Part shown: in pieces, positions 8,743-61,937 of the stretch
How positions within the stretch are numbered: the stretch's first letter is position 1
Layout: each line of letters opens with the position of its first letter
Source of the DNA: Fidelibacterota bacterium
GTDB lineage: Bacteria; Fidelibacterota; UBA8477; JABMPR01
NCBI GenBank assembly: GCA_034716895.1
Contig: JAYEKW010000062.1
Coordinates: forward strand, 17,885 to 81,884
DNA: 64,000 nucleotides
Reading direction: 5' to 3'
Notes under the pieces: model-generated
Database searches by the model: none
Told to the model about the DNA's origin: nothing
What the model saw: only the letters and a program-made list of their open reading frames with translations
Position numbers and translations under genes: made by a program

Positions 8743-8921
8743 GTTGTTCCTTCTCTCTGTCCCTTGATTTGGACCTGGTTAATTTGTATTATCTAACGGT
8801 AATACTGCATTATGAGTAAAAAAACAAGGATAATGTATCAAAGCAGTACCGAAATAAATGACAGATTATTTCTTAAATTGGTCGATTGGAAACAAAATTA
8901 TCATTCAAGGAAAGTGAAAGC

Positions 8922-9314
8922 ATGAGGAAAAGAAAATACTCTCCTGACAAAATGGCAAAAATATTTGCCGATAGAAGTCCTGAATTATCTGTGCGAAAAG
9001 TTGCCGAACTGCATGGAATAAGTGAATCGACTTATTACCGATGGAAAAGAGATTACAGCAACATAAATGACTGTGGTGATCAACTTGTCAAACAAAAAGT
9101 AGAGTTGAAGTCCCAGCAAAAATCCATTGCTTTGCTATCCCTTGATAAAGCGATGCTACTGGATATCCTACAGGGTCTACAGATCAAACCTGGGCAGAAG
9201 CGTGTTCTCGTGGATTATTTGCGAAAAACTTATATGGTAAGTGAGCGTAGAGCTTGCAAGCTGCTTCAGCTTAGCAGAACCAGTTATCGATATCTGGGTA
9301 AAAAACCGAAGTAG
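8922..9314 (+). mobile_element. IS3-family transposase remnant: OrfA HTH fused in-frame to the first ~25 residues of OrfB, with the DDE core missing
   Basis: MRKRKYSPDKMAKIF...GISESTYYRWKRDY...leucine zipper...SERRACKLLQLSRTSYRYLGKKPK then a stop. The RRAC..L..SRS.YYY motif is the start of the IS3 OrfB integrase, which is absent. The ORF in the track starts at 8886, but Met-13 is the likely start. Confidence 0.7.
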
Positions 9315-14613: not shown

Positions 14614-14849
14614 GATGGTCTCGCAAAAAGTACCTCTCGCCCGCCTGCGTATAACTTCGTGCGGGCAGGCAGAGCACGCAGAGCGTTGTATTGAGCCCTT
14701 CGGTTAAGCTCAGGAACCACCTGTCGAAATAGTGCAGAGTATTGATATTAATGGATATAGAAGTATTTGCGTTATGTGGTAAAGATTAAATGAGTTAGGG
14801 CGTATTTGATGATTTTTCAACCGTAAGGAACTTTTTGCGGTTTCGTCAA
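14614..14849 (+). repeat. MITE-like intergenic element, copy A (with a ~55-bp internal insertion relative to copy B)
   Basis: Near-identical to 17941-18121 apart from the extra block cgttgtattgagcccttcggttaagctcaggaaccacctgtcgaaatagtg. The termini tctcgcaaaaagtacc / ggaactttttgcggtttcg form terminal inverted repeats. Confidence 0.85.
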
Positions 14850-17940: not shown

Positions 17941-18121
17941 GATGGTCTCGCAAAAAGTACCTCTCGCCCGCCTGCGTATAACTTCGTGCGGGCAGGCAGA
18001 GCACGCAGAGGCGCAGAGTATTGATATTTATGGATTTAGGGGTATTTGCGTTATGTGGTTAATATTAAATGGGTTAGGGCGTATTTGATGATTTTTAAAT
18101 TACTTTTTGCGGTTTCGTCAA
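17941..18121 (+). repeat. MITE-like intergenic element, copy B, inserted between otsB and otsA
   Basis: Begins at the base after the otsB stop codon. 181 bp, with the same TIRs as copy A. Confidence 0.85.
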
Positions 18122-26465: not shown

Positions 26466-26560
26466 CAACACTTTGCGTCATTTCGATGAACTCAATACAA
26501 CGCTCTGCGCGCTCTGCGCCCTGCGAGAGGGACTTTTTGCGAAGGCGTCAATCTTAAAAG
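26466..26560 (-). repeat. Partial MITE-like element (5' portion, minus orientation)
   Basis: The rc reads attgacgccttcgcaaaaagtccctctcgcagggcgcagagcgcgcagagcgttgtattgag, collinear with the 5' end of copy A but lacking its internal hairpin. Confidence 0.65.
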
Positions 26561-40599: not shown

Positions 40600-41868
40600 A
40601 TGCTCTATAGACCAGGCAAATTATTCATATTCATCCTTCTAAATATCCCCATGCTTGCCTTTAGCCAGGGTCAAAAAACGCTGAACCTGGATGAGTGTAT
40701 TGAGTTAGGATTGAAGCAAAACCAATCCTTACAGATCAACCGCTTTGAGACTGATCGGAGTGTTTCTCAGGCTAAAAGTAATATCGGTATGATATTACCC
40801 AGCGTGAATTATTCTCTCTCAGGTTCTTCCACTGATATTGGAGGCTTGGGCTGGAACGAGCGTTACAGTACTTCCCTAAGTATTTCGCAGAATATCTGGG
40901 ATGGTGGTCGCTGGTGGAACACCCTGAAATCAGCTGAAGTGGCTCAGGATCTGGCTGATATTCAGTTGACCAGCTACGAATTGAGTACCGTTTACCAGGT
41001 CAAGGTGGCGTTCTATAACTATCTCTCAACCCTGAAATTATTGGATGTGTATCGCGAAAATCGTGCGACTAGTGAATATCAACATCAATTAACTCTGGAA
41101 CGCTTCAAGCTTGGAGCAGCTTCACAAAATGATACTCTGAAAACCAGGGTGAACATAGAACAATCAAGATTGCAAATAATCAATGGAGAAGCTGACCTGC
41201 AAGCAAAGGCTCGTGATATGAATATAATTCTGGGCCGCGAGTGGGATACTGAGTTAACGCTTCTGGAACCTGCATGGGTGGCAGTGAAAGTTCCCGAATT
41301 ACAGAATATACTTGAAGATGTATTGGCGGCGAATCCTCAATTAAAATTGCTGGATCGAAATAAGGAAGTTTCCGGTTATAATGTAAAAATAGCCAGAGCC
41401 GGCTATATCCCCTCGTTGGGAATGAACGCATCCTACACCAATGGAGGTTCAGAATTCGGGGATGTATTTGGTGATAACACTGCCTCGCTTTCAACTGGTT
41501 TGAATCTGACCTGGAACTTGTTTAATGGAACGCGTACTCGGCGGAGTGTTGAGCAAAGTAAGATCAGTGCAAAGATTGCTGTTGAGAACTATGATCTGGC
41601 AGAGCGAAATTTGAGAAAAAATTTGGCGCAAACGTTGGAGAGTATGGAAACCCTTGGGACATCAGTAGAAATATCACAATTGATCCTGAATGCTTCTGAA
41701 CAGGATTTGCTCCTGGCTCAGGAACAATATAAAATTGGGTCGCTCTCAATTTTAGACGTTTTGCGCATCACAGCTAGCTACGAGGATGCCAGATTAAGCT
41801 TGATCAGGGCTCAATATAATTTGAAAATAGCCGAAGCAGGACTCCACCAGCTCATGGGAAAACAATAA
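40600..41868 (+). CDS. TolC-family outer membrane efflux protein
   Basis: 422 aa with signal peptide. Has two repeated OEP-type segments. Confidence 0.8.
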   Translation: MLYRPGKLFIFILLNIPMLAFSQGQKTLNLDECIELGLKQNQSLQINRFETDRSVSQAKSNIGMILPSVNYSLSGSSTDIGGLGWNERYSTSLSISQNIWDGGRWWNTLKSAEVAQDLADIQLTSYELSTVYQVKVAFYNYLSTLKLLDVYRENRATSEYQHQLTLERFKLGAASQNDTLKTRVNIEQSRLQIINGEADLQAKARDMNIILGREWDTELTLLEPAWVAVKVPELQNILEDVLAANPQLKLLDRNKEVSGYNVKIARAGYIPSLGMNASYTNGGSEFGDVFGDNTASLSTGLNLTWNLFNGTRTRRSVEQSKISAKIAVENYDLAERNLRKNLAQTLESMETLGTSVEISQLILNASEQDLLLAQEQYKIGSLSILDVLRITASYEDARLSLIRAQYNLKIAEAGLHQLMGKQ

Positions 41869-41877
41869 GAGGAAATC

Positions 41878-43122
41878 ATGACCAAAAAGAAAATAATTAT
41901 AATCGTTGTTGCAGTGGTCCTCCTGGGAGTCATTGGATATTTTGCAGTCAATAAGGAAAAAGGAAGCAGCAAGGATGTTCAGGCAGCCAGGGTTGAAAGA
42001 GGAGAGGTTGTCCACAAGGTAGCTGCCTCTGGTAAGATTCAACCTGTGGTAGAGGTTGCTGTTAGTGCCGATGTTGCTGGTCGCGTAATTAAAATGGCGG
42101 TTAAAGAAGGTGACTGGGTCAAAAAAGGACAATTCCTGGCACAACTGGATGCGACTCGTTACAAAGCAGATGTCGATCGGGCTGAACAAGTGCAGGCATC
42201 GGCTGATGCATCGCTTTCCCTGGCAGCCCTGGAAAAAAATCAACAATATAAACTTTATCAAAAGCAGATGGTGAGTGAGCTGATCTTTCAAAGCGCTATG
42301 GTTCGTTACCAACAAGCCCTGTCATCTACAAAACAAGCCCAGGCCGCTCTGACTCAATCGCGTGATAATTATAATAAAACCATAATGTTTGCTCCTATGT
42401 CAGGTACGGTAACACTGGTCAACAAGGAAGTTGGGGAGATGGCTCTGGGGTCAGCATTCAGTCGTGATATCATTATGGTTATTGCGGATCTAAACGATAT
42501 GGAAGTATTAGTTGATGTCAACGAGAATGATGTTGTTGATGTGACTCTAGGAGATACCACTGAGATCGAAATAGATGCTTTACAGGACACCATGTTTACG
42601 GGGATTGTCACTGAGATAGCCCATAGTGCCCAAAACAGTAATCTGGGGAGCCTGGACCAAGTAACCAATTTTAAAGTACATATCCGCTTAATGGATCCGC
42701 CCGATGAAATACGTCCCGGAATGTCTGCTGCAGTGGATATTCGGACGAATGTTCAACGGGATGTCTTATTTGTGCCTATTCAAAGTGTAACCATGCGGAA
42801 ACCACGGCAACTTGAAGAAAAACAGGATAAAGAGTTAAGCCGGGCGGATAGCAGCATGGATAATGAGGATGAAGACCTTGACCCAGTTGAGGTTGTATTT
42901 GTGATAGTGGATAATGAGAAGGGTAAGGGTCAGAAAGTCGAACAACGGGAGATCATCACTGGAATCATAGGTGAGCGTGATTTTGAGATCATCTCTGGTT
43001 TGGAGCTTGATGACCAGATCATTACCGGACCGTATAAACAAATCAGTCGTGGTCTCAATGATGGTGATAAGGTAAAGATAACCAAGCGGAAGAAGTTTAA
43101 TGCAGGGAAAGAAGAAAAATAG
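41878..43122 (+). CDS. macA: Efflux membrane-fusion (periplasmic adaptor) protein, MacA/HlyD family
   Basis: N-terminal TM, coiled-coil hairpin, lipoyl and beta-barrel regions (GKIQPVVEVAVSADVAGRV, LDATRY...), and a MacA-type C-terminus. Confidence 0.8.
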   Translation: MTKKKIIIIVVAVVLLGVIGYFAVNKEKGSSKDVQAARVERGEVVHKVAASGKIQPVVEVAVSADVAGRVIKMAVKEGDWVKKGQFLAQLDATRYKADVDRAEQVQASADASLSLAALEKNQQYKLYQKQMVSELIFQSAMVRYQQALSSTKQAQAALTQSRDNYNKTIMFAPMSGTVTLVNKEVGEMALGSAFSRDIIMVIADLNDMEVLVDVNENDVVDVTLGDTTEIEIDALQDTMFTGIVTEIAHSAQNSNLGSLDQVTNFKVHIRLMDPPDEIRPGMSAAVDIRTNVQRDVLFVPIQSVTMRKPRQLEEKQDKELSRADSSMDNEDEDLDPVEVVFVIVDNEKGKGQKVEQREIITGIIGERDFEIISGLELDDQIITGPYKQISRGLNDGDKVKITKRKKFNAGKEEK

Positions 43123-43138
43123 AATTCAGAATTCAGAA
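43121..43138. repeat. Left inverted repeat AGAATTCAGAATTCAGAA of the four-helix-bundle cassette
   Basis: Perfect 18-bp inverse complement of 43565-43582. Confidence 0.85.
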
Positions 43139-43152
43139 GACAGTAGACGAGA

Positions 43153-43503
43153 ATGCTGACTCCAGCAAGAAAATTTGAAGATTTACTGGTTTGGCAAAAA
43201 GCTCATGCGTTTGTACTATCAATCTATACCTTGTCCAAAACTTTTCCAAAAACAGAACAATTTGGTCTTACCAGTCAGTTTCGCCGAGCTGCAGTTTCAG
43301 TTCCTGCAAACATTGCAGAGGGCTGGAAGCGTAAAGGGAAAGCGGATAAGAAGCGGTTTTATAATATTGCACAGGCCTCCCTCGAAGAATGCCGTTACTA
43401 TCTATTACTCACTCATGACTTGGGATATGGTGAAACTGAAAATGCAAATTCACTTTGTATAGAAGTTTCAAAACTGCTCACTTCATATAACAGTAAAATC
43501 TGA
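43153..43503 (+). CDS. Four-helix-bundle protein (23S rRNA intervening-sequence protein family)
   Basis: 116 aa. FEDLLVWQKAHAFVLSIYTLSKTFPKTEQFGLTSQFRRAAVSVPANIAEGW...IAQASLEECRYYLLL is diagnostic of the family. It is inserted between macA and macB. Confidence 0.85.
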   Translation: MLTPARKFEDLLVWQKAHAFVLSIYTLSKTFPKTEQFGLTSQFRRAAVSVPANIAEGWKRKGKADKKRFYNIAQASLEECRYYLLLTHDLGYGETENANSLCIEVSKLLTSYNSKI

Positions 43504-43564
43504 TAAAATGACGATGATTAAAAAAACGATAAATGATTCTGACAAGAATTCTAACTACTGGATT

Positions 43565-43582
43565 CTGAATTCTGAATTCTTA
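43565..43582. repeat. Right inverted repeat TTCTGAATTCTGAATTCT of the four-helix-bundle cassette
   Basis: Perfect inverse complement of 43121-43138. Extra GAATTC/TTCTGA motifs lie at 43537-43560. Confidence 0.85.
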
Positions 43583-43593
43583 AAGGAATATCC

Positions 43594-44289
43594 ATGCCCC
43601 TAATCCAAGTCAAAGACCTCCATAAGATATATCAAATGGGAATTACTGAAGTTCGCGCATTGGATGGTGTTTCTATTAACATTGAATCCAATGAATATAT
43701 ATCAATCATGGGACCCTCAGGTTCAGGGAAATCCACGCTTATGAACTTGATCGGTTGCCTGGATACTCCTACCTCAGGTGATTTCTTTATGGATGGTGTG
43801 AATGTAGCCACCATGACAGATGATGAATTAGCTCATATCAGAAATAAGCAGATCGGTTTCGTTTTTCAAACTTTTAACCTGCTGTCCAAATCAACCAGTC
43901 TCAGGAATGTTGAACTGCCTTTGATCTACAATGGATCCATCAAAGCCGCTGATCGTAAAGGAATGGCCATCGCTGCTCTTGAGCGGGTGGGATTGGGTGA
44001 TCGGACTCATCACAAACCGAATGAATTATCTGGAGGACAGCGCCAGCGTGTGGCCGTAGCCAGAGCTCTGGTAAATGATCCCGCTATCATCCTGGCTGAT
44101 GAACCGACTGGAAATCTGGACTCGAAAACAGGTGAGGAGATCATGGCTCTGTTTGATGATCTACACGAACAGGGTAATACCATCATTTTGGTTACCCATG
44201 AAGAACACATTGCCGCTCACGCCAACCGGGTTGTCAGGCTTCTGGATGGTAAAATTGCTGTGGATGAATCAACACAACGAGCGAAGTAA
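43594..44289 (+). CDS. macB: ABC transporter ATP-binding protein, MacB/LolD type
   Basis: Has [12 protein letters not shown] and [15 protein letters not shown], plus [11 protein letters not shown]. Confidence 0.9.
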
Positions 44290-45510
44290 ATGAAAAGCTT
44301 CTTCTGGGAGAATTTACGCATCGCTCTGTCCGAACTTTGGGCACACAAGACTCGGACCATCTTGACCGGGACAGGTATTGTCATTGGCATCATTGCTGTG
44401 TCGCTTATGTCGACCCTGATCAGTGGTGTGGACGGTTTATTTGAAGACAGCATGAAATTTTTAGGTCGTGGAAACCTGTATGTTGAGAAATGGCCCTGGT
44501 TTGGTGATGAGGATTGGTGGACCTTAAGAAATAGACCGCGAATTGAACTTGATATGGCTGATGATATTCGAAACCGTTCTGAATATGCTCTGGAAGTTGC
44601 CACAGAAAGAGGACGCTCAGCGAACCTTAGTTATCAAGAATACTCTGCTGAGAATATTTTTATTCATGGAGTAACCTCAAATTACCCTGAAGTATCCACT
44701 GTAGATGTGGAATTTGGCCGATTTTTTACTGATTCTGAAGATCGAACAGGAGCCCAGATCATCCTGCTTGGCTCAGAAGTAGCCAAAACTCTTTTTCCCC
44801 AGGAAAACCCTCTTGATAAACTAATATTTGCTGGTTCAAAGCGTTTCAGGGTTATCGGGGTGCTGGCGGAGATGGGCAAGTTTATGGGCGCGTTTTCTCA
44901 AGATACCCAGGTTTTGATTCCCATGGAAACCTTTAATAAAATCTTTCACGGTCCCTGGGGGATGCGTCGTATTACCGTTAAAGTTCCTGAGGAACATGTT
45001 GAAGATGCCAAGGAAGAACTCCGTGGAGTTGTGCGAGTATTGCGGGGCTTGAAACCTGAAGAAAAAGATGATTTTGCAGTTAATCAACAGGATTCTTTCC
45101 GCCAAACTTACCAAGGGATCAAGATGGCCATTGGGGGAACGGGTCTAATCATTACGGCACTATCACTGTTAGTTGGGGGTATTGGTATAGCAAATATCAT
45201 GTTTGTCTCTGTTAAAGAACGTACCCGTGAGATTGGTGTACGCAAAGCGTTGGGGGCTACGCGCTCGCAGATTCAGGGGCAGTTTATGATCGAAGCCATG
45301 TTGATCACTGCTACTGGTGGCCTGGTTGGACTTCTGGTATCTACTGCTGCCAGTTTGGCTATCAGCAAATTTCTATTTCCAGCCAGCATGTCTTTCGGAA
45401 TCGCTTTCGGAGCAATTGCCCTGAGTATTGCAGTAGGACTTTTTGCCGGCCTTGCCCCTGCCAGAAAAGGAGCCAAGCTGGATCCGATCGAGGCACTTCG
45501 CTATGAATAA
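44290..45510 (+). CDS. ABC transporter permease, FtsX/MacB-like
   Basis: N-terminal TM, a large periplasmic domain, and a C-terminal FtsX-type 3-TM bundle (IGIANIMFVSVKERTREIGVRKALGA). Confidence 0.85.
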   Translation: MKSFFWENLRIALSELWAHKTRTILTGTGIVIGIIAVSLMSTLISGVDGLFEDSMKFLGRGNLYVEKWPWFGDEDWWTLRNRPRIELDMADDIRNRSEYALEVATERGRSANLSYQEYSAENIFIHGVTSNYPEVSTVDVEFGRFFTDSEDRTGAQIILLGSEVAKTLFPQENPLDKLIFAGSKRFRVIGVLAEMGKFMGAFSQDTQVLIPMETFNKIFHGPWGMRRITVKVPEEHVEDAKEELRGVVRVLRGLKPEEKDDFAVNQQDSFRQTYQGIKMAIGGTGLIITALSLLVGGIGIANIMFVSVKERTREIGVRKALGATRSQIQGQFMIEAMLITATGGLVGLLVSTAASLAISKFLFPASMSFGIAFGAIALSIAVGLFAGLAPARKGAKLDPIEALRYE

Positions 45511-45534
45511 AACAACAGTTATTACTATTTCTAC

Positions 45535-45563
45535 TTGCCACAAAGGCACAAAGACACGAAGCG
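45535..45563. repeat. Left inverted repeat of the GxxExxY cassette
   Basis: tgccacaaaggcacaaagacacgaag is the perfect 26-bp inverse complement of 46090-46115. Confidence 0.85.
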
Positions 45564-45606
45564 AATTAAGTAGATATTGTTGAAGTAGAGGTAGTTTATC
45601 AACGCG

Positions 45607-46020
45607 TTGGCATACAAAGGATTTCACGAGAGATATGAATCTCTTACAGAAAGAGAAGAGTCTATAGCAGAACAAATTGTAGATGCTGCTTTTACTGTTC
45701 ATAAAAGATTAGGACCAGGGTTACTAGAAAATATTTATGAAGTTTGCTTCTGCTATGAGCTGGAAAAACGTGGTTTGATAATCAAAAGGCAAGTAAATAT
45801 TCCAATCAAATATGATGGATTGGTATTTGATAAAGGACTACGTCTAGATGTCTTGGTCGATGACTTGATAATTTGCGAATTGAAGGCTGTTGACAAAATG
45901 AATCCAGTATGGAAGGCTCAAATTCTCAGCCACCTAAGAATGTTAAATAAAAGACTGGGGTTCTTGATAAATTTCAATGTTCCAACCATAAAAAATGGTA
46001 TCAAAAGAATTATTTTGTAA
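45607..46020 (+). CDS. GxxExxY protein (PD-(D/E)XK nuclease-fold family)
   Basis: 137 aa. Has the GPGLLENIYEVCFCYEL (GxxExxY) motif. It is inserted between two permease genes. Confidence 0.85.
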   Translation: MAYKGFHERYESLTEREESIAEQIVDAAFTVHKRLGPGLLENIYEVCFCYELEKRGLIIKRQVNIPIKYDGLVFDKGLRLDVLVDDLIICELKAVDKMNPVWKAQILSHLRMLNKRLGFLINFNVPTIKNGIKRIIL

Positions 46021-46087
46021 GGATTCGAAAGTGTTCATAGACATAGCCAACCAAGAGCCTATCCGTTGTTCAATTACTTTTATTAAA

Positions 46088-46116
46088 ACTTCGTGTCTTT
46101 GTGCCTTTGTGGCAGG
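46088..46116. repeat. Right inverted repeat of the GxxExxY cassette
   Basis: cttcgtgtctttgtgcctttgtggca is the inverse complement of 45537-45562. It lies ~30 bp upstream of the next permease start. Confidence 0.85.
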
Positions 46117-46137
46117 TAAAACAACTGACAAAAAGGG

Positions 46138-47406
46138 TTGATTCGAATGTATATTAGAACATCAATTAAAACCTTAAGTGATGCTTTCTTTATGGCTCTG
46201 GAAGCGATTCGGGACAATCTTTTGCGGTCCATTTTAACCTTGTTGGGTATTGTTATTGGTGTATTTGCCATCATTGCGGTGATGACAGCTATCCGTACCC
46301 TGGAATCATCCATTAATTCCGGCTTAAACGTATTTGGTTCGGATGTGATCTTTGTCCAAAAATCGCCGGTGATTCAAATGGGTGATCATAGCAGTCGCCG
46401 CAAATACTGGCGTAGACCGAACATTACCTATGATATGGCTTTGGAACTGAAAGAGCGCATGGTCGGAGCAGAGTTTGTCAGTGTTGCAGATGGTAGTGGA
46501 GGAAAGACCCTGCGCTATCAAAAAGAGAAAACCAACCCGAATGTGGGAGTACAGGGAGTTGATGAATGGGGTTTGGAAGCATCCAGCTACTCTCTGGACT
46601 ATGGCCGTAATTTTATCCCGGAGGATATAGAATATAATCGCCGGGTTGTGGTGCTTGGGACGGATGTAATTGAAAAGCTTTTCCCTTATATGAATCCCAT
46701 GGATCAAACCGTTACCATCAACGGGATCGGATTTAATGTGGTGGGAGTAATGAAGCGCAAGGGGGAAATGTTCGGCCAAAGTCAGGATAATTTTGTGGTG
46801 ATTCCCATTACCACTTACCTGCAACACTTCAGTAGTCGTTGGACATCTTTGGGCATATCTATCAAAGCACCGGATGCGGAAGGTTTTGATACAGTCAAGG
46901 AAGAAGTTATCGATCAGATGCGTATCGTCAGGGGTTTGGGTCCTGATGAGGAAAATGATTTTGAAGTTACATCAAATGATGCGCTTATCGAAACTTTTGG
47001 CTCATTTACAGCAGGGATTAAAATGTTTGCCGGAGCAGTAAGCGTGATTGCATTGGTGGTTGCGGGAATAGGTATCATGAACATCATGTTGGTTTCTGTC
47101 AGCGAGCGCATCAAGGAAATCGGAATTCGCAAAGCCATCGGCGCCACTCGGAACAACATTCTGTTTCAGTTTCTCTTGGAGGCAGTTTTTCTGTCACTGA
47201 TCGGGGGTGTGATCGGTGTGTTGCTGGGGGTTGGGGCAGGGAATATGATTACCCTGGTTCTTAAGAGTGTGGATACCGTGATTCCTATTGATTGGGTCTT
47301 TATCGGACTCTTTACCTGTTCTTTCATCGGGATCGTTTTTGGTATTTATCCAGCTTACAAAGCCGCTGCACTGGATCCCATTGAATCCCTCAGACATGAA
47401 AAGTAA
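46138..47406 (+). CDS. ABC transporter permease, FtsX/MacB-like (second copy)
   Basis: Same architecture as 44290-45510 (GIMNIMLVSVSERIKEIGIRKAIGA). The true start is probably the ATG at 46147. Confidence 0.85.
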   Translation: MIRMYIRTSIKTLSDAFFMALEAIRDNLLRSILTLLGIVIGVFAIIAVMTAIRTLESSINSGLNVFGSDVIFVQKSPVIQMGDHSSRRKYWRRPNITYDMALELKERMVGAEFVSVADGSGGKTLRYQKEKTNPNVGVQGVDEWGLEASSYSLDYGRNFIPEDIEYNRRVVVLGTDVIEKLFPYMNPMDQTVTINGIGFNVVGVMKRKGEMFGQSQDNFVVIPITTYLQHFSSRWTSLGISIKAPDAEGFDTVKEEVIDQMRIVRGLGPDEENDFEVTSNDALIETFGSFTAGIKMFAGAVSVIALVVAGIGIMNIMLVSVSERIKEIGIRKAIGATRNNILFQFLLEAVFLSLIGGVIGVLLGVGAGNMITLVLKSVDTVIPIDWVFIGLFTCSFIGIVFGIYPAYKAAALDPIESLRHEK

Positions 47407-47740
47407 ATCACCAAGCTTCGCTTAAGAGCTTTACCCCGGTAAACTTGATTAAACATTTTTTGTGCAATAAAAGCAATCGCGAATTTCGCTAATTGCACGA
47501 ATAATCCTCCCTCGGGGGAGGTGCTCCGCAGGAGCGGAGGGAGTTTGCAGGCAAAGCTACAGATTTAAAAAAAGTCCCACTATTCCTGACAGGGGCAGCT
47601 GATATCAAAACCTGTTTTCAAGCGCTCCTGGCTTCGTTTTTTTACTTCGCCGTAACAAGTAGAACTCAAACAGGCTTAAGCACCCCCAAAAAATGTCCCC
47701 TGAAACCAGTTTGGCTTCGCTGGAAACTAGTTTCGGAATA

Positions 47741-50862: not shown

Positions 50863-51131
50863 AATGAAACCACGGATTTCACTGAACAGGGATAATCGCG
50901 AATTACGCTAATTACACGAAATCTTTTCTCGCGCAGACGAGACGCAGAGAACGTGAAGGTTTATAGTCTAAAGATTTCAAAATTCTACATTTGTTAATCG
51001 ATGTTCAGAATGAAAATCCTCAACATTCAGATCAATTGTTTCTGAATCCTGTCCCCCTCTATGTTTATATATTTACGTTTCACTACGATGCACAATTCAA
51101 ATTATCATGGGTAAACTTCTGAATTCTGATT

Positions 51132-56308: not shown

Positions 56309-56436
56309 CGCGTTGCATGTTTGGGTTAGGAGATTCCTGAACTTGTCGAAGAGGCAGTAAAGGATTTGCAACTATCCTAACATAATCTGAAATATGTTTG
56401 GCTACGCGAAAACAGGTTTCATGTACAATAAGATTC

Positions 56437-56475
56437 AAAACTCAGGGCTGACAATTGTCAGCCCTGAGTTTTTTT
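56437..56475. terminator. Bidirectional rho-independent terminator
   Basis: aaaa-ctcagggctgaca-att-tgtcagccctgag-ttttttt: a ~12-bp perfect stem with an A-run 5' and a T-run 3'. It lies between the convergent sdhB and FG-GAP genes. Confidence 0.8.
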
Positions 56476-56551
56476 AGCCAAAACCTGTTTTCAGGGAGCA
56501 GAACGAGACAAACAGGTTTCAGGATTTTATTCCTCCGGAAACGGGTTGGAT

Positions 56552-61454: not shown

Positions 61455-61937
61455 TATTTCATTTGACTACAAATTATTGAAAAGAACAAACGCCCATTAA
61501 TCAAGGTCCTGATGTGTGAAAAGCTATTCTGAGTCCCAAGTTGGTATTCTATCAATTGGTCTTTAAAACACGCACTTTGCGTCTTCGAGAGAGTGTAACG
61601 AACGTGGCGATCTCCAAATATCAATTGCATTTCCAAAGTGCACGATAAATTCAAGGGATCACCCTACACTTTGCAAGTTACGGGAGACAAGGTTTTTCCA
61701 GCAACGAATAGAACACGCACTTCGAAGTGAAATTGGCATTGTCGTTCCCCTCAGTTTTATCCGCGAAAATCTGCGAATATCTACGGCTAAAATGAAAGGG
61801 CTTGAAACACCTGCAAAAATGGTTTGAAAAAATTTGCAGTATTGAATTGGCAGCCACTTTACAATAGATTAATCGTCTTAAACAAAGAATGAAATCCGGT
61901 CTCAAATTGGGTAGACCATAAGCTCGTTAGGGGAATT

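Follow-up and report, generated by a model that had tools for sequence, protein, structure and literature searches.

In a 64,000-nucleotide stretch of a Fidelibacterota contig (JAYEKW010000062.1; hereafter the window), a small gene encoding a four-helix-bundle (4HB) protein lies between a macA-like and a macB-like gene of an efflux operon. We propose that positions 43121-43580 are probably a selfish minigene cassette of the intervening sequence (IVS) type, whose stem bridges the host genes macA and macB. The architecture of the cassette is that of the open reading frame (ORF)-carrying IVS of 23S rRNA, here lodged co-oriented in the macA-macB spacer. The best-supported role of its two inverted arms is structural: they would render the insertion tolerable rather than serve as ends for recognition by a transposase.

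A heptamer stem encloses the four-helix-bundle gene

The arms of the cassette pair with each other, and the resulting stem stands directly against the stop codon of one host gene and the start region of the next. The left arm (43121-43146, plus strand) reads AGAATTC AGAATTC AGAAGAC AGTAG. Its perfect core, AGAATTCAGAATTCAGAA (43121-43138), shares its first two bases with the end of the macA-like TAG stop codon (43120-43122), as a preliminary description of this DNA had noted. The exact reverse complement of AGAATTCAGAATTCAGAA forms the core of the right arm at 43563-43580. The perfect 18-bp inverted repeat and its left arm were thus described correctly, and the right arm, previously placed at 43565-43582, was shifted by 2 nt. 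Pairing extends inward from this 18-nt perfect core to 26 nt at 92% (43121-43146 with 43555-43580), and the arms, 408 nt apart, consist of tandem heptamers and their complement. The right arm, (GAATTCT)n, occupies 43537-43580 of the plus strand; Tandem Repeats Finder (TRF) gave five copies of GAATTCT with a 71% match at 43546-43580, including degenerate units back to approximately 43546. The additional array reported at 43537-43560 is real but degenerate, with units extending to approximately 43537. Both arms were identified by pairing, TRF and folding, and the terminal stem of the cassette was present in the minimum free energy (MFE) and centroid folds (z -5.1).

We considered whether the right arm merely repeats the left in direct orientation, with a palindromic core giving the appearance of inversion. 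This was ruled out by base seven of the unit, which also changes, from A to T, indicating that the right arm is a genuine inverse copy. When up to three mismatches were allowed, AGAATTCAGAATTCAGAA had five matches in the window compared with 0.24 expected, and none of 100 shuffles reached five. When all pairs separated by up to 1.5 kb within the 64-kb window were ranked, the cassette repeat was the second-best long-range inverted repeat. The shuffles and this ranking rule out chance or low complexity as the origin of the arms.

The enclosed ORF (43153-43503, plus strand) encodes a 116-aa protein of the 23S_rRNA_IVP/S23p family. It matched PF05635 (E 1.6e-37) and TIGR02436, 'four helix bundle protein' (E 1.3e-34), confirming the earlier assignment to the 23S-IVS family, and it also matched the crystallised Xanthomonas protein XCC0516 (PDB 2GSC, E 7e-19). 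When the exact cassette proteins were searched for elsewhere, only the source locus was recovered. Ahead of the minigene the window reads AGAATTC AGAATTC AGAAGAC AGTAGAC GAGA ATG (also written ...CAGAAGACAGTAGACGAGAATG); tandem heptamers and a purine-rich motif stand directly before the ATG, and the left arm spans the region in which the ribosome-binding site of the minigene would be expected. On the other side, the stem ends 13 nt from the macB-like ATG (43594), which is preceded by a Shine-Dalgarno (SD)-like AAGGA (43583-43587).

The flanks of the cassette, AAAAAT/AGAATTC... and ...GAATTCT/TAAAGG, showed no target-site duplication. No transposase or recombinase adjoins the cassette, and the 4HB protein has no nuclease, recombinase or catalytic fold. 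No terminator-like site, taken as a short GC-rich hairpin followed by a T run, was present in 43100-43600, which agrees with the earlier statement that the repeat is not a transcriptional terminator. A terminator or an own promoter was rejected both here and at a second cassette of the window (described below), since no signal rose above shuffles. Rfam gave no match at either cassette, its sole match in the window being a tRNA.

Arm pairing is conserved across the family

Pairing of the arms was maintained throughout the family despite sequence change. We collected 80 metagenomic relatives of the 4HB protein (53-70% identity) and three orthologues; 69 loci had enough flanking sequence (53-76% identity). 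A tandem array immediately preceded the ATG in 42 of these 69 loci (period 7 in 33) and immediately followed the stop codon in 41 (period 7 in 35), compared with 6 of 243 control windows for any period and 3 for period 7. The heptamer unit varied by locus (AGGAGTC, AGAAGAC, GAAGTCA, AGTAGGG, TAGCTAG, CGGATAC, AGCCAGG, GGGAATC and others), and in each locus the downstream array was the complement of the upstream array. Shifts of heptamer register make the alignment of the four orthologues ambiguous; therefore, pairing within and between loci was used in place of column-wise covariation. The duplex energies of sampled pairs were -48.5 kcal/mol for arms of the same locus and -35.5 kcal/mol for arms of different loci (p 5e-10). 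In 18 of 73 loci the own partner ranked above each of 20 random partners, compared with approximately 3.5 loci by chance.

AGGAG or AGAAG is present in many left-arm units, and the array frequently continues into the ATG with its last unit (...GTCAGAATG), indicating that the stem covers the ribosome-binding region of the minigene. The metagenomic 4HB loci lie nearly always in a protein-coding context, with a median of 9 nt from the upstream stop codon to the left arm and of 22 nt from the end of the right arm to the downstream start codon.

The same organisation was observed in Xanthomonas, where the XCC0516-type 4HB gene splits accB from accC in the order aroQ, accB, 4HB gene, accC. GGGAATC-type heptamers enclose both cassettes (1420-1875 in locus L128 and 1480-1935 in L132). 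The left flank reads TGA TTTGAC GGGAATC GGGAGTG GAGAATC GGGAATC and the right flank CCATTCC CCATTCT CGACTCC CTATTCCC ATG, in which the ATG is the start codon of accC. When folded, the terminal stem consists of blocks of 6 bp separated by a mismatch at each seventh position (z -8.7). GGGAATC heptamers are reportedly enriched in Xanthomonas, with 70-75 convergent inverted pairs per genome, and were described without a link to a gene (Rehm et al. 2015, PMC4692102); most of those pairs are probably ORF-less. Like the window arms, they are intergenic tandem heptamers occurring as plus/minus-strand pairs able to form stem-loops. However, that study treated them as G-quadruplex-forming simple repeats, whereas the window heptamer is AT-rich and allows no quadruplex.

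The cassette resembles the intervening sequences of 23S rRNA

The 23S rRNA IVS of Coxiella burnetii is 428 nt long, and its S23p (PF05635) ORF occupies the loop of an inverted-repeat stem (PMC4990558). Its 5' part contains AGAAGA followed by three copies of GACAGAT and one of GACAGAA directly before the ATG, the number of heptamers differs between strains, and cuts of the stem by RNase III were mapped by rapid amplification of cDNA ends (PMC4990558). ORF-carrying IVSs are also cited there for Leptospira, and in bacteria of the candidate phyla radiation (CPR) non-intron insertions in rRNA contain PF05635 as well as GIY-YIG ORFs (PMC11270868). The preliminary description had held that no inverted-repeat-bounded unit was defined for this family; the ORF-carrying 23S rRNA IVS is such a unit (PMC4990558).

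The window cassette shares with these elements the S23p/PF05635 protein, the location of the ORF in the loop of a long enclosing stem, the tandem heptamers with a purine-rich SD-like motif before the ATG, a unit length of about 430-470 nt and a sporadic distribution; the IVSs, too, are regarded as selfish. The heptamers of the Marinimicrobia orthologue L005, which reads GACAGAAGACAGAATG (also written ...CAGAAGACAGAAGACAGAATG), likewise match the Coxiella arrangement, and the three are units of one kind. It does not share their site in an rRNA helix: its host is the intercistronic spacer of a protein-coding operon, whereas the host in Coxiella is helix 45 of 23S rRNA. In addition, excision by RNase III is experimental in Coxiella and only inferred for the window cassette, and the window ORF is under purifying selection, whereas the Coxiella ORF is decaying and probably untranslated. 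An IVS-type unit in protein-coding operons, and the generality of periodic arms, appear to be undescribed in the literature searched. No connection between PF05635 genes and heptamer arms outside rRNA was found in this literature, the coverage of which is incomplete, so that this is an absence of evidence only.

Occupancy and decay at orthologous junctions

Presence, absence and decay of minigenes at orthologous sites were evident when the window operon was compared with 14 related operons of Neomarinimicrobia (Marinimicrobia/SAR406; L001-L014), whose membrane-fusion proteins (MFPs) are 81-87% identical. Junctions in these 15 operons were designated J1 (MFP and ATPase), J2 (ATPase and permease 1) and J3 (permease 1 and permease 2). 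The macA and macB counterparts of relatives lie 12-69 nt apart, which confirms that the minigene splits an otherwise contiguous operon in the window, as had been proposed. All three junctions are empty in L007, L010, L011 and L012, with spacers of 43-63, 10-11 and 7-8 nt for J1 to J3. The 4HB gene is found at J1 in the window, L005, L006 and L009; it is absent or degraded in the other 11 of the 15 operons, which are otherwise intact.

The degraded sites retain different parts of the cassette. In L004, both 4HB arms are kept and the ORF is internally deleted. In L013, the right 4HB arm stands alone beside an incoming cassette of another type, which carries a GIY-YIG gene (see below), and in L002 the left 4HB arm and a ATGCTGAGC stub precede such a cassette. 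Left-arm-like heptamers (TCAGAATACAGTAGAAT) are joined to the ATPase leader in L007, L010 and L012. J1 contains no gene in L001, L003, L007, L010-L012 and L014, several of which retain left-arm heptamers; the gene-less sites with heptamers look like deletions rather than sites that were never occupied.

The four intact 4HB genes at J1 are 72-76% identical, with pN of 0.16-0.19, pS of 0.69-0.95 and dN/dS of approximately 0.1, that is, they are under purifying selection, and their synonymous sites are saturated. Occupancy is patchy on the tree of the flanking proteins. The scatter over the tree, the arm remnants in other lineages, the saturated synonymous sites and the low dN/dS together indicate that the J1 cassette is old. 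It looks inherited, kept under purifying selection in some lineages and eroded in others.

These results bear on the earlier proposal of a mobile cassette bounded by terminal inverted repeats (TIRs). The unit is indeed inserted and dispensable, as indicated by the occupied, empty and remnant sites among the 15 operons and by analogous cassettes at other junctions, but a TIR-bounded unit was not supported. The 4HB gene looks ancient and vertically inherited at the macA-macB site, contrary to recent mobility there; the evidence for movement comes from other cassettes, which occur with the same type and arms at different junctions, and from the wider distribution. The preliminary description had named an 18-mer confined to this locus as grounds for refutation, and within the window it occurs only here; a search of the window for the GIY-YIG arm gave no copy either. 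The arms of all other 4HB copies differ from those of the window, even at J1 in the orthologues. Target-site duplications sought at the outer edges were not convincing.

All 18 minigene instances of the operon set are co-oriented with the host operon. L008 has a different 4HB gene at J3. We also observed an independent 4HB gene between an ABC ATPase and a permease in a Moraniibacteriota (CPR) locus (L021, 7500-7940), bracketed by an inverted repeat matching at 12 of 13 positions.

Two further minigene families have the same layout

A second minigene family shares this layout in the window itself. The GxxExxY cassette (45529-46121) lies between the two permease genes, 2.4 kb downstream of the 4HB cassette. 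Its gene (45607-46020, plus strand) encodes a 137-aa PD-(D/E)XK protein (PF13366, E 7e-38; TIGR04256, E 1e-39), named by NCBI as GxxExxY protein of Candidatus Marinimicrobia. The left arm (45529-45561, plus strand), composed of the 8-mers CACAAAGG CACAAAGA CACGAAG, and the right arm (46089-46121, plus strand) make up the top-ranked long-range inverted repeat in the window, at 94% over 33 nt. The 25-mer core of these arms was found solely at its two arm positions, and the arms were paired as a terminal stem in the MFE and centroid folds (z -5.9). A direct repeat, TAAAACAAC(A/T)G, was noted at 45508-45518 and 46116-46126, just outside or at the edge of the arms; the 9-nt repeat TAAAACAAC could be a candidate target duplication of this cassette.

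GxxExxY genes were found at J3 in the window and L006 (44% mutual identity) and at J2 in L014 (69% identity to that of the window). At least 8000 relatives were detected at E <= 1e-10. The best 120 were 72-100% identical, and the few with a named source included Cloacimonetes, Desulfobacterales and Marinimicrobia. These genes lie at the metK/ahcY junction, or between a nucleotidyltransferase/kinase gene and dapB, and are flanked by the same 8-mer arm family as in the window, GCCAC[AT]AAGGCACAAAG and its complement. Tandem ORF-less hairpins made of GxxExxY arms vary in number between near-identical contigs. In L108, L110 and L111 (approximately 1700-2800), an identical GxxExxY gene at metK-ahcY has 1-2 ORF-less hairpins on the left and 2-4 on the right, which shows rapid change in unit number. 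Relatives of the GxxExxY or GIY-YIG genes were not found in viral contigs.

The window also contains short tandem arrays with 9-10-nt units in intergenic spacers (CGCGAATTA, CGCCAATTT, GCACGCAGA and CGCTCTGCG; 1517-1541, 2766-2791, 14630-14684, 17966-18020, 26501-26519, 47477-47502, 50897-50920 and 61758-61782), among which an element of approximately 55 nt occurs twice. Judging from their resemblance to the arms of the L006 GxxExxY cassette, these arrays may be ORF-less remnants.

The third minigene type, present in the relatives, encodes a small GIY-YIG nuclease (PF01541, E 1e-16). It was found at J1 in L002 and L013, at J2 in L003, L004, L008 and L009, and at J3 in L004 and L009, and it is nearly always enclosed by GTCATCCCGAGCGGAGTCGAGGGA and its complement, with up to 27 of 27 positions matching. 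The right arm codes for the C-terminal residues SLDSARDD. At J2, the ORF continues across the right arm and its stop codon overlaps the permease start codon (ATGA or GTGA), an arrangement that reads as classic translational coupling and a parallel adaptation. A solo GIY-YIG arm was found at J1 of L008 and an ORF-less 13-bp hairpin made from both GIY-YIG arms at J2 of L013. In these neighbouring cassette types, the inserted DNA reaches 14-60 nt past the arms. In a Flavobacterium sp. locus (L134, 1000-1700), a GIY-YIG gene was observed with an ORF-less hairpin on each side. The arms of these hairpins, TGTCACCCCGAGCGCAGTCGAGGGG, belong to the same arm family as those of the Marinimicrobia GIY-YIG cassettes, and the layout resembles that of repetitive extragenic palindromic (REP) sequences with REP-associated tyrosine transposases (RAYTs).

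Proposed function of the stem and evidence against it

We hypothesized that the arms act in the operon transcript. The stem would fold so that the macA stop codon and the macB ribosome-binding site (AAGGA) come within approximately 15 nt of each other; brought together in this way, they would functionally bridge the 470-nt insert. By analogy with the rRNA-borne copies, RNase III may cut the stem. The stem would also mask the ribosome-binding region of the minigene. The macA TAG overlaps the first arm, and ribosomes that terminate there would unwind the stem and expose this region.

Several observations weigh against an IVS-type cassette acting through its RNA. Cleavage by RNase III is known for rRNA-borne copies only (PMC4990558). 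None of the 20 metagenomic 4HB loci tested with Rfam lies in rRNA; therefore, the link to IVSs rests on architecture and the literature. Across the wider set, orientation is only biased (20 loci in +/+ and 7 in -/- arrangement). Arm mismatches read on the sense transcript comprised 40 G.U and 74 A.C pairs (p 0.002), and the antisense duplex was slightly more stable in 45 loci, compared with 27 with the reverse (p 0.04). We had considered G.U asymmetry as proof of an RNA stem; the outcome was the opposite and was taken as counter-evidence. This strand asymmetry does not fit what simple selection on a sense-RNA helix predicts, although the purine/pyrimidine composition of the arms and the multiple registers may confound the strand tests. 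Finally, the ORF-less hairpins, solo arms and copy-number changes point to dynamics at the DNA level that an RNA role alone does not explain.

Alternative explanations

The solo arms, ORF-less hairpins and changes in unit number led us to keep, as the main rival, a DNA-level hairpin element of the REP/RAYT kind. According to this model, the arrays are DNA substrates, as single-strand hairpins or cruciforms, that the minigene product binds, cuts or spreads (the GIY-YIG and PD-(D/E)XK proteins as nucleases, the 4HB protein as a binding factor), and the ORF-less arrays are non-autonomous progeny. The ORF-less same-arm hairpin at J2 of L013, the one to four tandem copies that distinguish the near-identical L108, L110 and L111, the solo arm at J1 of L008, the Flavobacterium GIY-YIG gene with ORF-less hairpins of the Marinimicrobia arm family on both sides and the 70-75 convergent heptamer pairs of Xanthomonas (PMC4692102) are all consistent with it, as are the nuclease folds in two of the three minigene families and the strand tests that do not favour a sense RNA. 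We nevertheless consider it unlikely for the 4HB cassette: the protein lacks a nuclease or recombinase fold, a sequence-specific enzyme would not readily account for arms that are unconserved in sequence, a loop of 400 nt makes extrusion of such stems from duplex DNA inefficient, and RNase III cleavage of the same architecture has been demonstrated experimentally (PMC4990558). REP sequences and REPINs with RAYTs (PMC3116915) resemble the cassettes in having a small gene between inverted copies of a short repeat and scattered ORF-less intergenic hairpins. However, a RAYT is an HUH transposase and REPs are conserved within a genome, whereas the window gene encodes a four-helix bundle rather than an HUH (Y1) transposase and its arms vary by copy.

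An inverted repeat around a small gene, a junction that is polymorphic among relatives and ORF-less derivatives would also be expected of a classical non-autonomous transposon, similar to a miniature inverted-repeat transposable element with a passenger gene, whose 18-bp TIRs are recognised in trans by a transposase. This reading is largely refuted by an 18-mer that is unique in the window and arms that differ in every copy, J1 orthologues included, and we regard it as very improbable; there is no visible target-site duplication or adjacent transposase, in neighbouring cassette types the inserted DNA continues beyond the arms, and the cassette is old at this site. Co-orientation, purifying selection and retention in four lineages could instead mean that the efflux operon includes the 4HB gene as a genuine functional component, with the stem serving the host in regulation (attenuation, mRNA stability or coupling). 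We give this hardly any credence, as the gene is missing or degraded in 11 of 15 otherwise intact operons, the family and the same kind of arms occur in unrelated contexts (accB-accC and many other neighbourhoods), and unrelated minigenes occupy the same junctions.

Two other known systems were compared with the IVS-type cassette. The free-standing homing endonuclease genes of T-even phages (seg, mob) are small, optional and patchily distributed between conserved, co-transcribed genes, and the GIY-YIG fold is common to them and the third cassette type. In contrast, the 4HB protein is not a nuclease and the window minigenes have no DNA-binding extensions; to our knowledge, bracketing stems have not been described for seg or mob. 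The accessory protein Avd of diversity-generating retroelements (DGRs) belongs to the same four-helix-bundle superfamily, and the 116-aa protein gave weak matches to bAvd (26.3 bits, cut-off 40) and NF033474 (31.8 bits, cut-off 80). No reverse transcriptase or template/variable repeats lie beside the 4HB gene, whose neighbours are the membrane-fusion protein and ABC ATPase genes. The scores below cut-off and the lack of such neighbours do not support an identity as DGR Avd.

The efflux operon and other features of the window

The host operon comprises, in order, genes for a Yip1-like protein, a TolC-like outer-membrane factor, an HlyD-type membrane-fusion protein, the 4HB minigene, an ABC ATPase and two MacB_PCD/FtsX permeases. 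All the coordinates that follow are on the plus strand. The TolC-like gene (40600-41868; PF02321 OEP, E 2.4e-61) lies upstream of the macA-like membrane-fusion protein gene (41878-43122; HlyD_D23/HlyD_3). The macB-like ABC ATPase, with its SD-like motif, spans 43583-44289 (PF00005, E 1.6e-31) and is followed by MacB-type permease 1 (44290-45510; MacB_PCD and FtsX). MacB-type permease 2 (46138-47406; MacB_PCD and FtsX) likely starts at ATG 46147, as in relatives, according to the alignment with empty junctions.

Elsewhere in the window, a perfect 18+18-nt palindrome (56437-56472) lies inside a 24-nt inverted repeat (56396-56504) between a plus-strand and a minus-strand gene. An ORF with an IS3-type transposase helix-turn-helix domain (HTH_Tnp_1) at 8886-9314 is unrelated to the cassettes.

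Implications

We tentatively suggest a broader interpretation, which is possible but on balance not the one we would expect to hold in full, namely, that stem-bracketed minigene cassettes are a general and largely undescribed class. It would comprise at least three unrelated families (PF05635, GxxExxY PD-(D/E)XK and small GIY-YIG), each carrying a characteristic type of periodic arm that is self-complementary (7-mers, 8-mers and a motif of approximately 25 nt). Such cassettes would colonise tight operon junctions across phyla (macAB, accBC, metK-ahcY and others), and the IVSs would be those that have entered rRNA helices. One architecture would then fit the ORF-carrying rRNA IVSs, the erratic 4HB, GxxExxY and GIY-YIG minigenes of many genomes and the inverted heptamers of Xanthomonas. 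If this is true, the Xanthomonas simple repeats are cassette arms and ORF-less remnants, and the same may hold in other bacteria; the pentameric 4HB protein could be a factor acting on the cassettes or their arms.

The extension of the pattern to Xanthomonas accBC makes it experimentally testable. A 30-year-old question, the nature of IVS elements and S23p proteins, is thereby moved to the tractable X. campestris, in which the accB-XCC0516-accC locus includes a protein of solved structure. The stem offers a testable reason why insertions are tolerated in tightly coupled operons, that is, the insert is bridged or processed out. The cassettes are also relevant to annotation and operon prediction. 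If bridging holds, these cassettes would represent a natural design for inserting a gene into an operon without polar effects.

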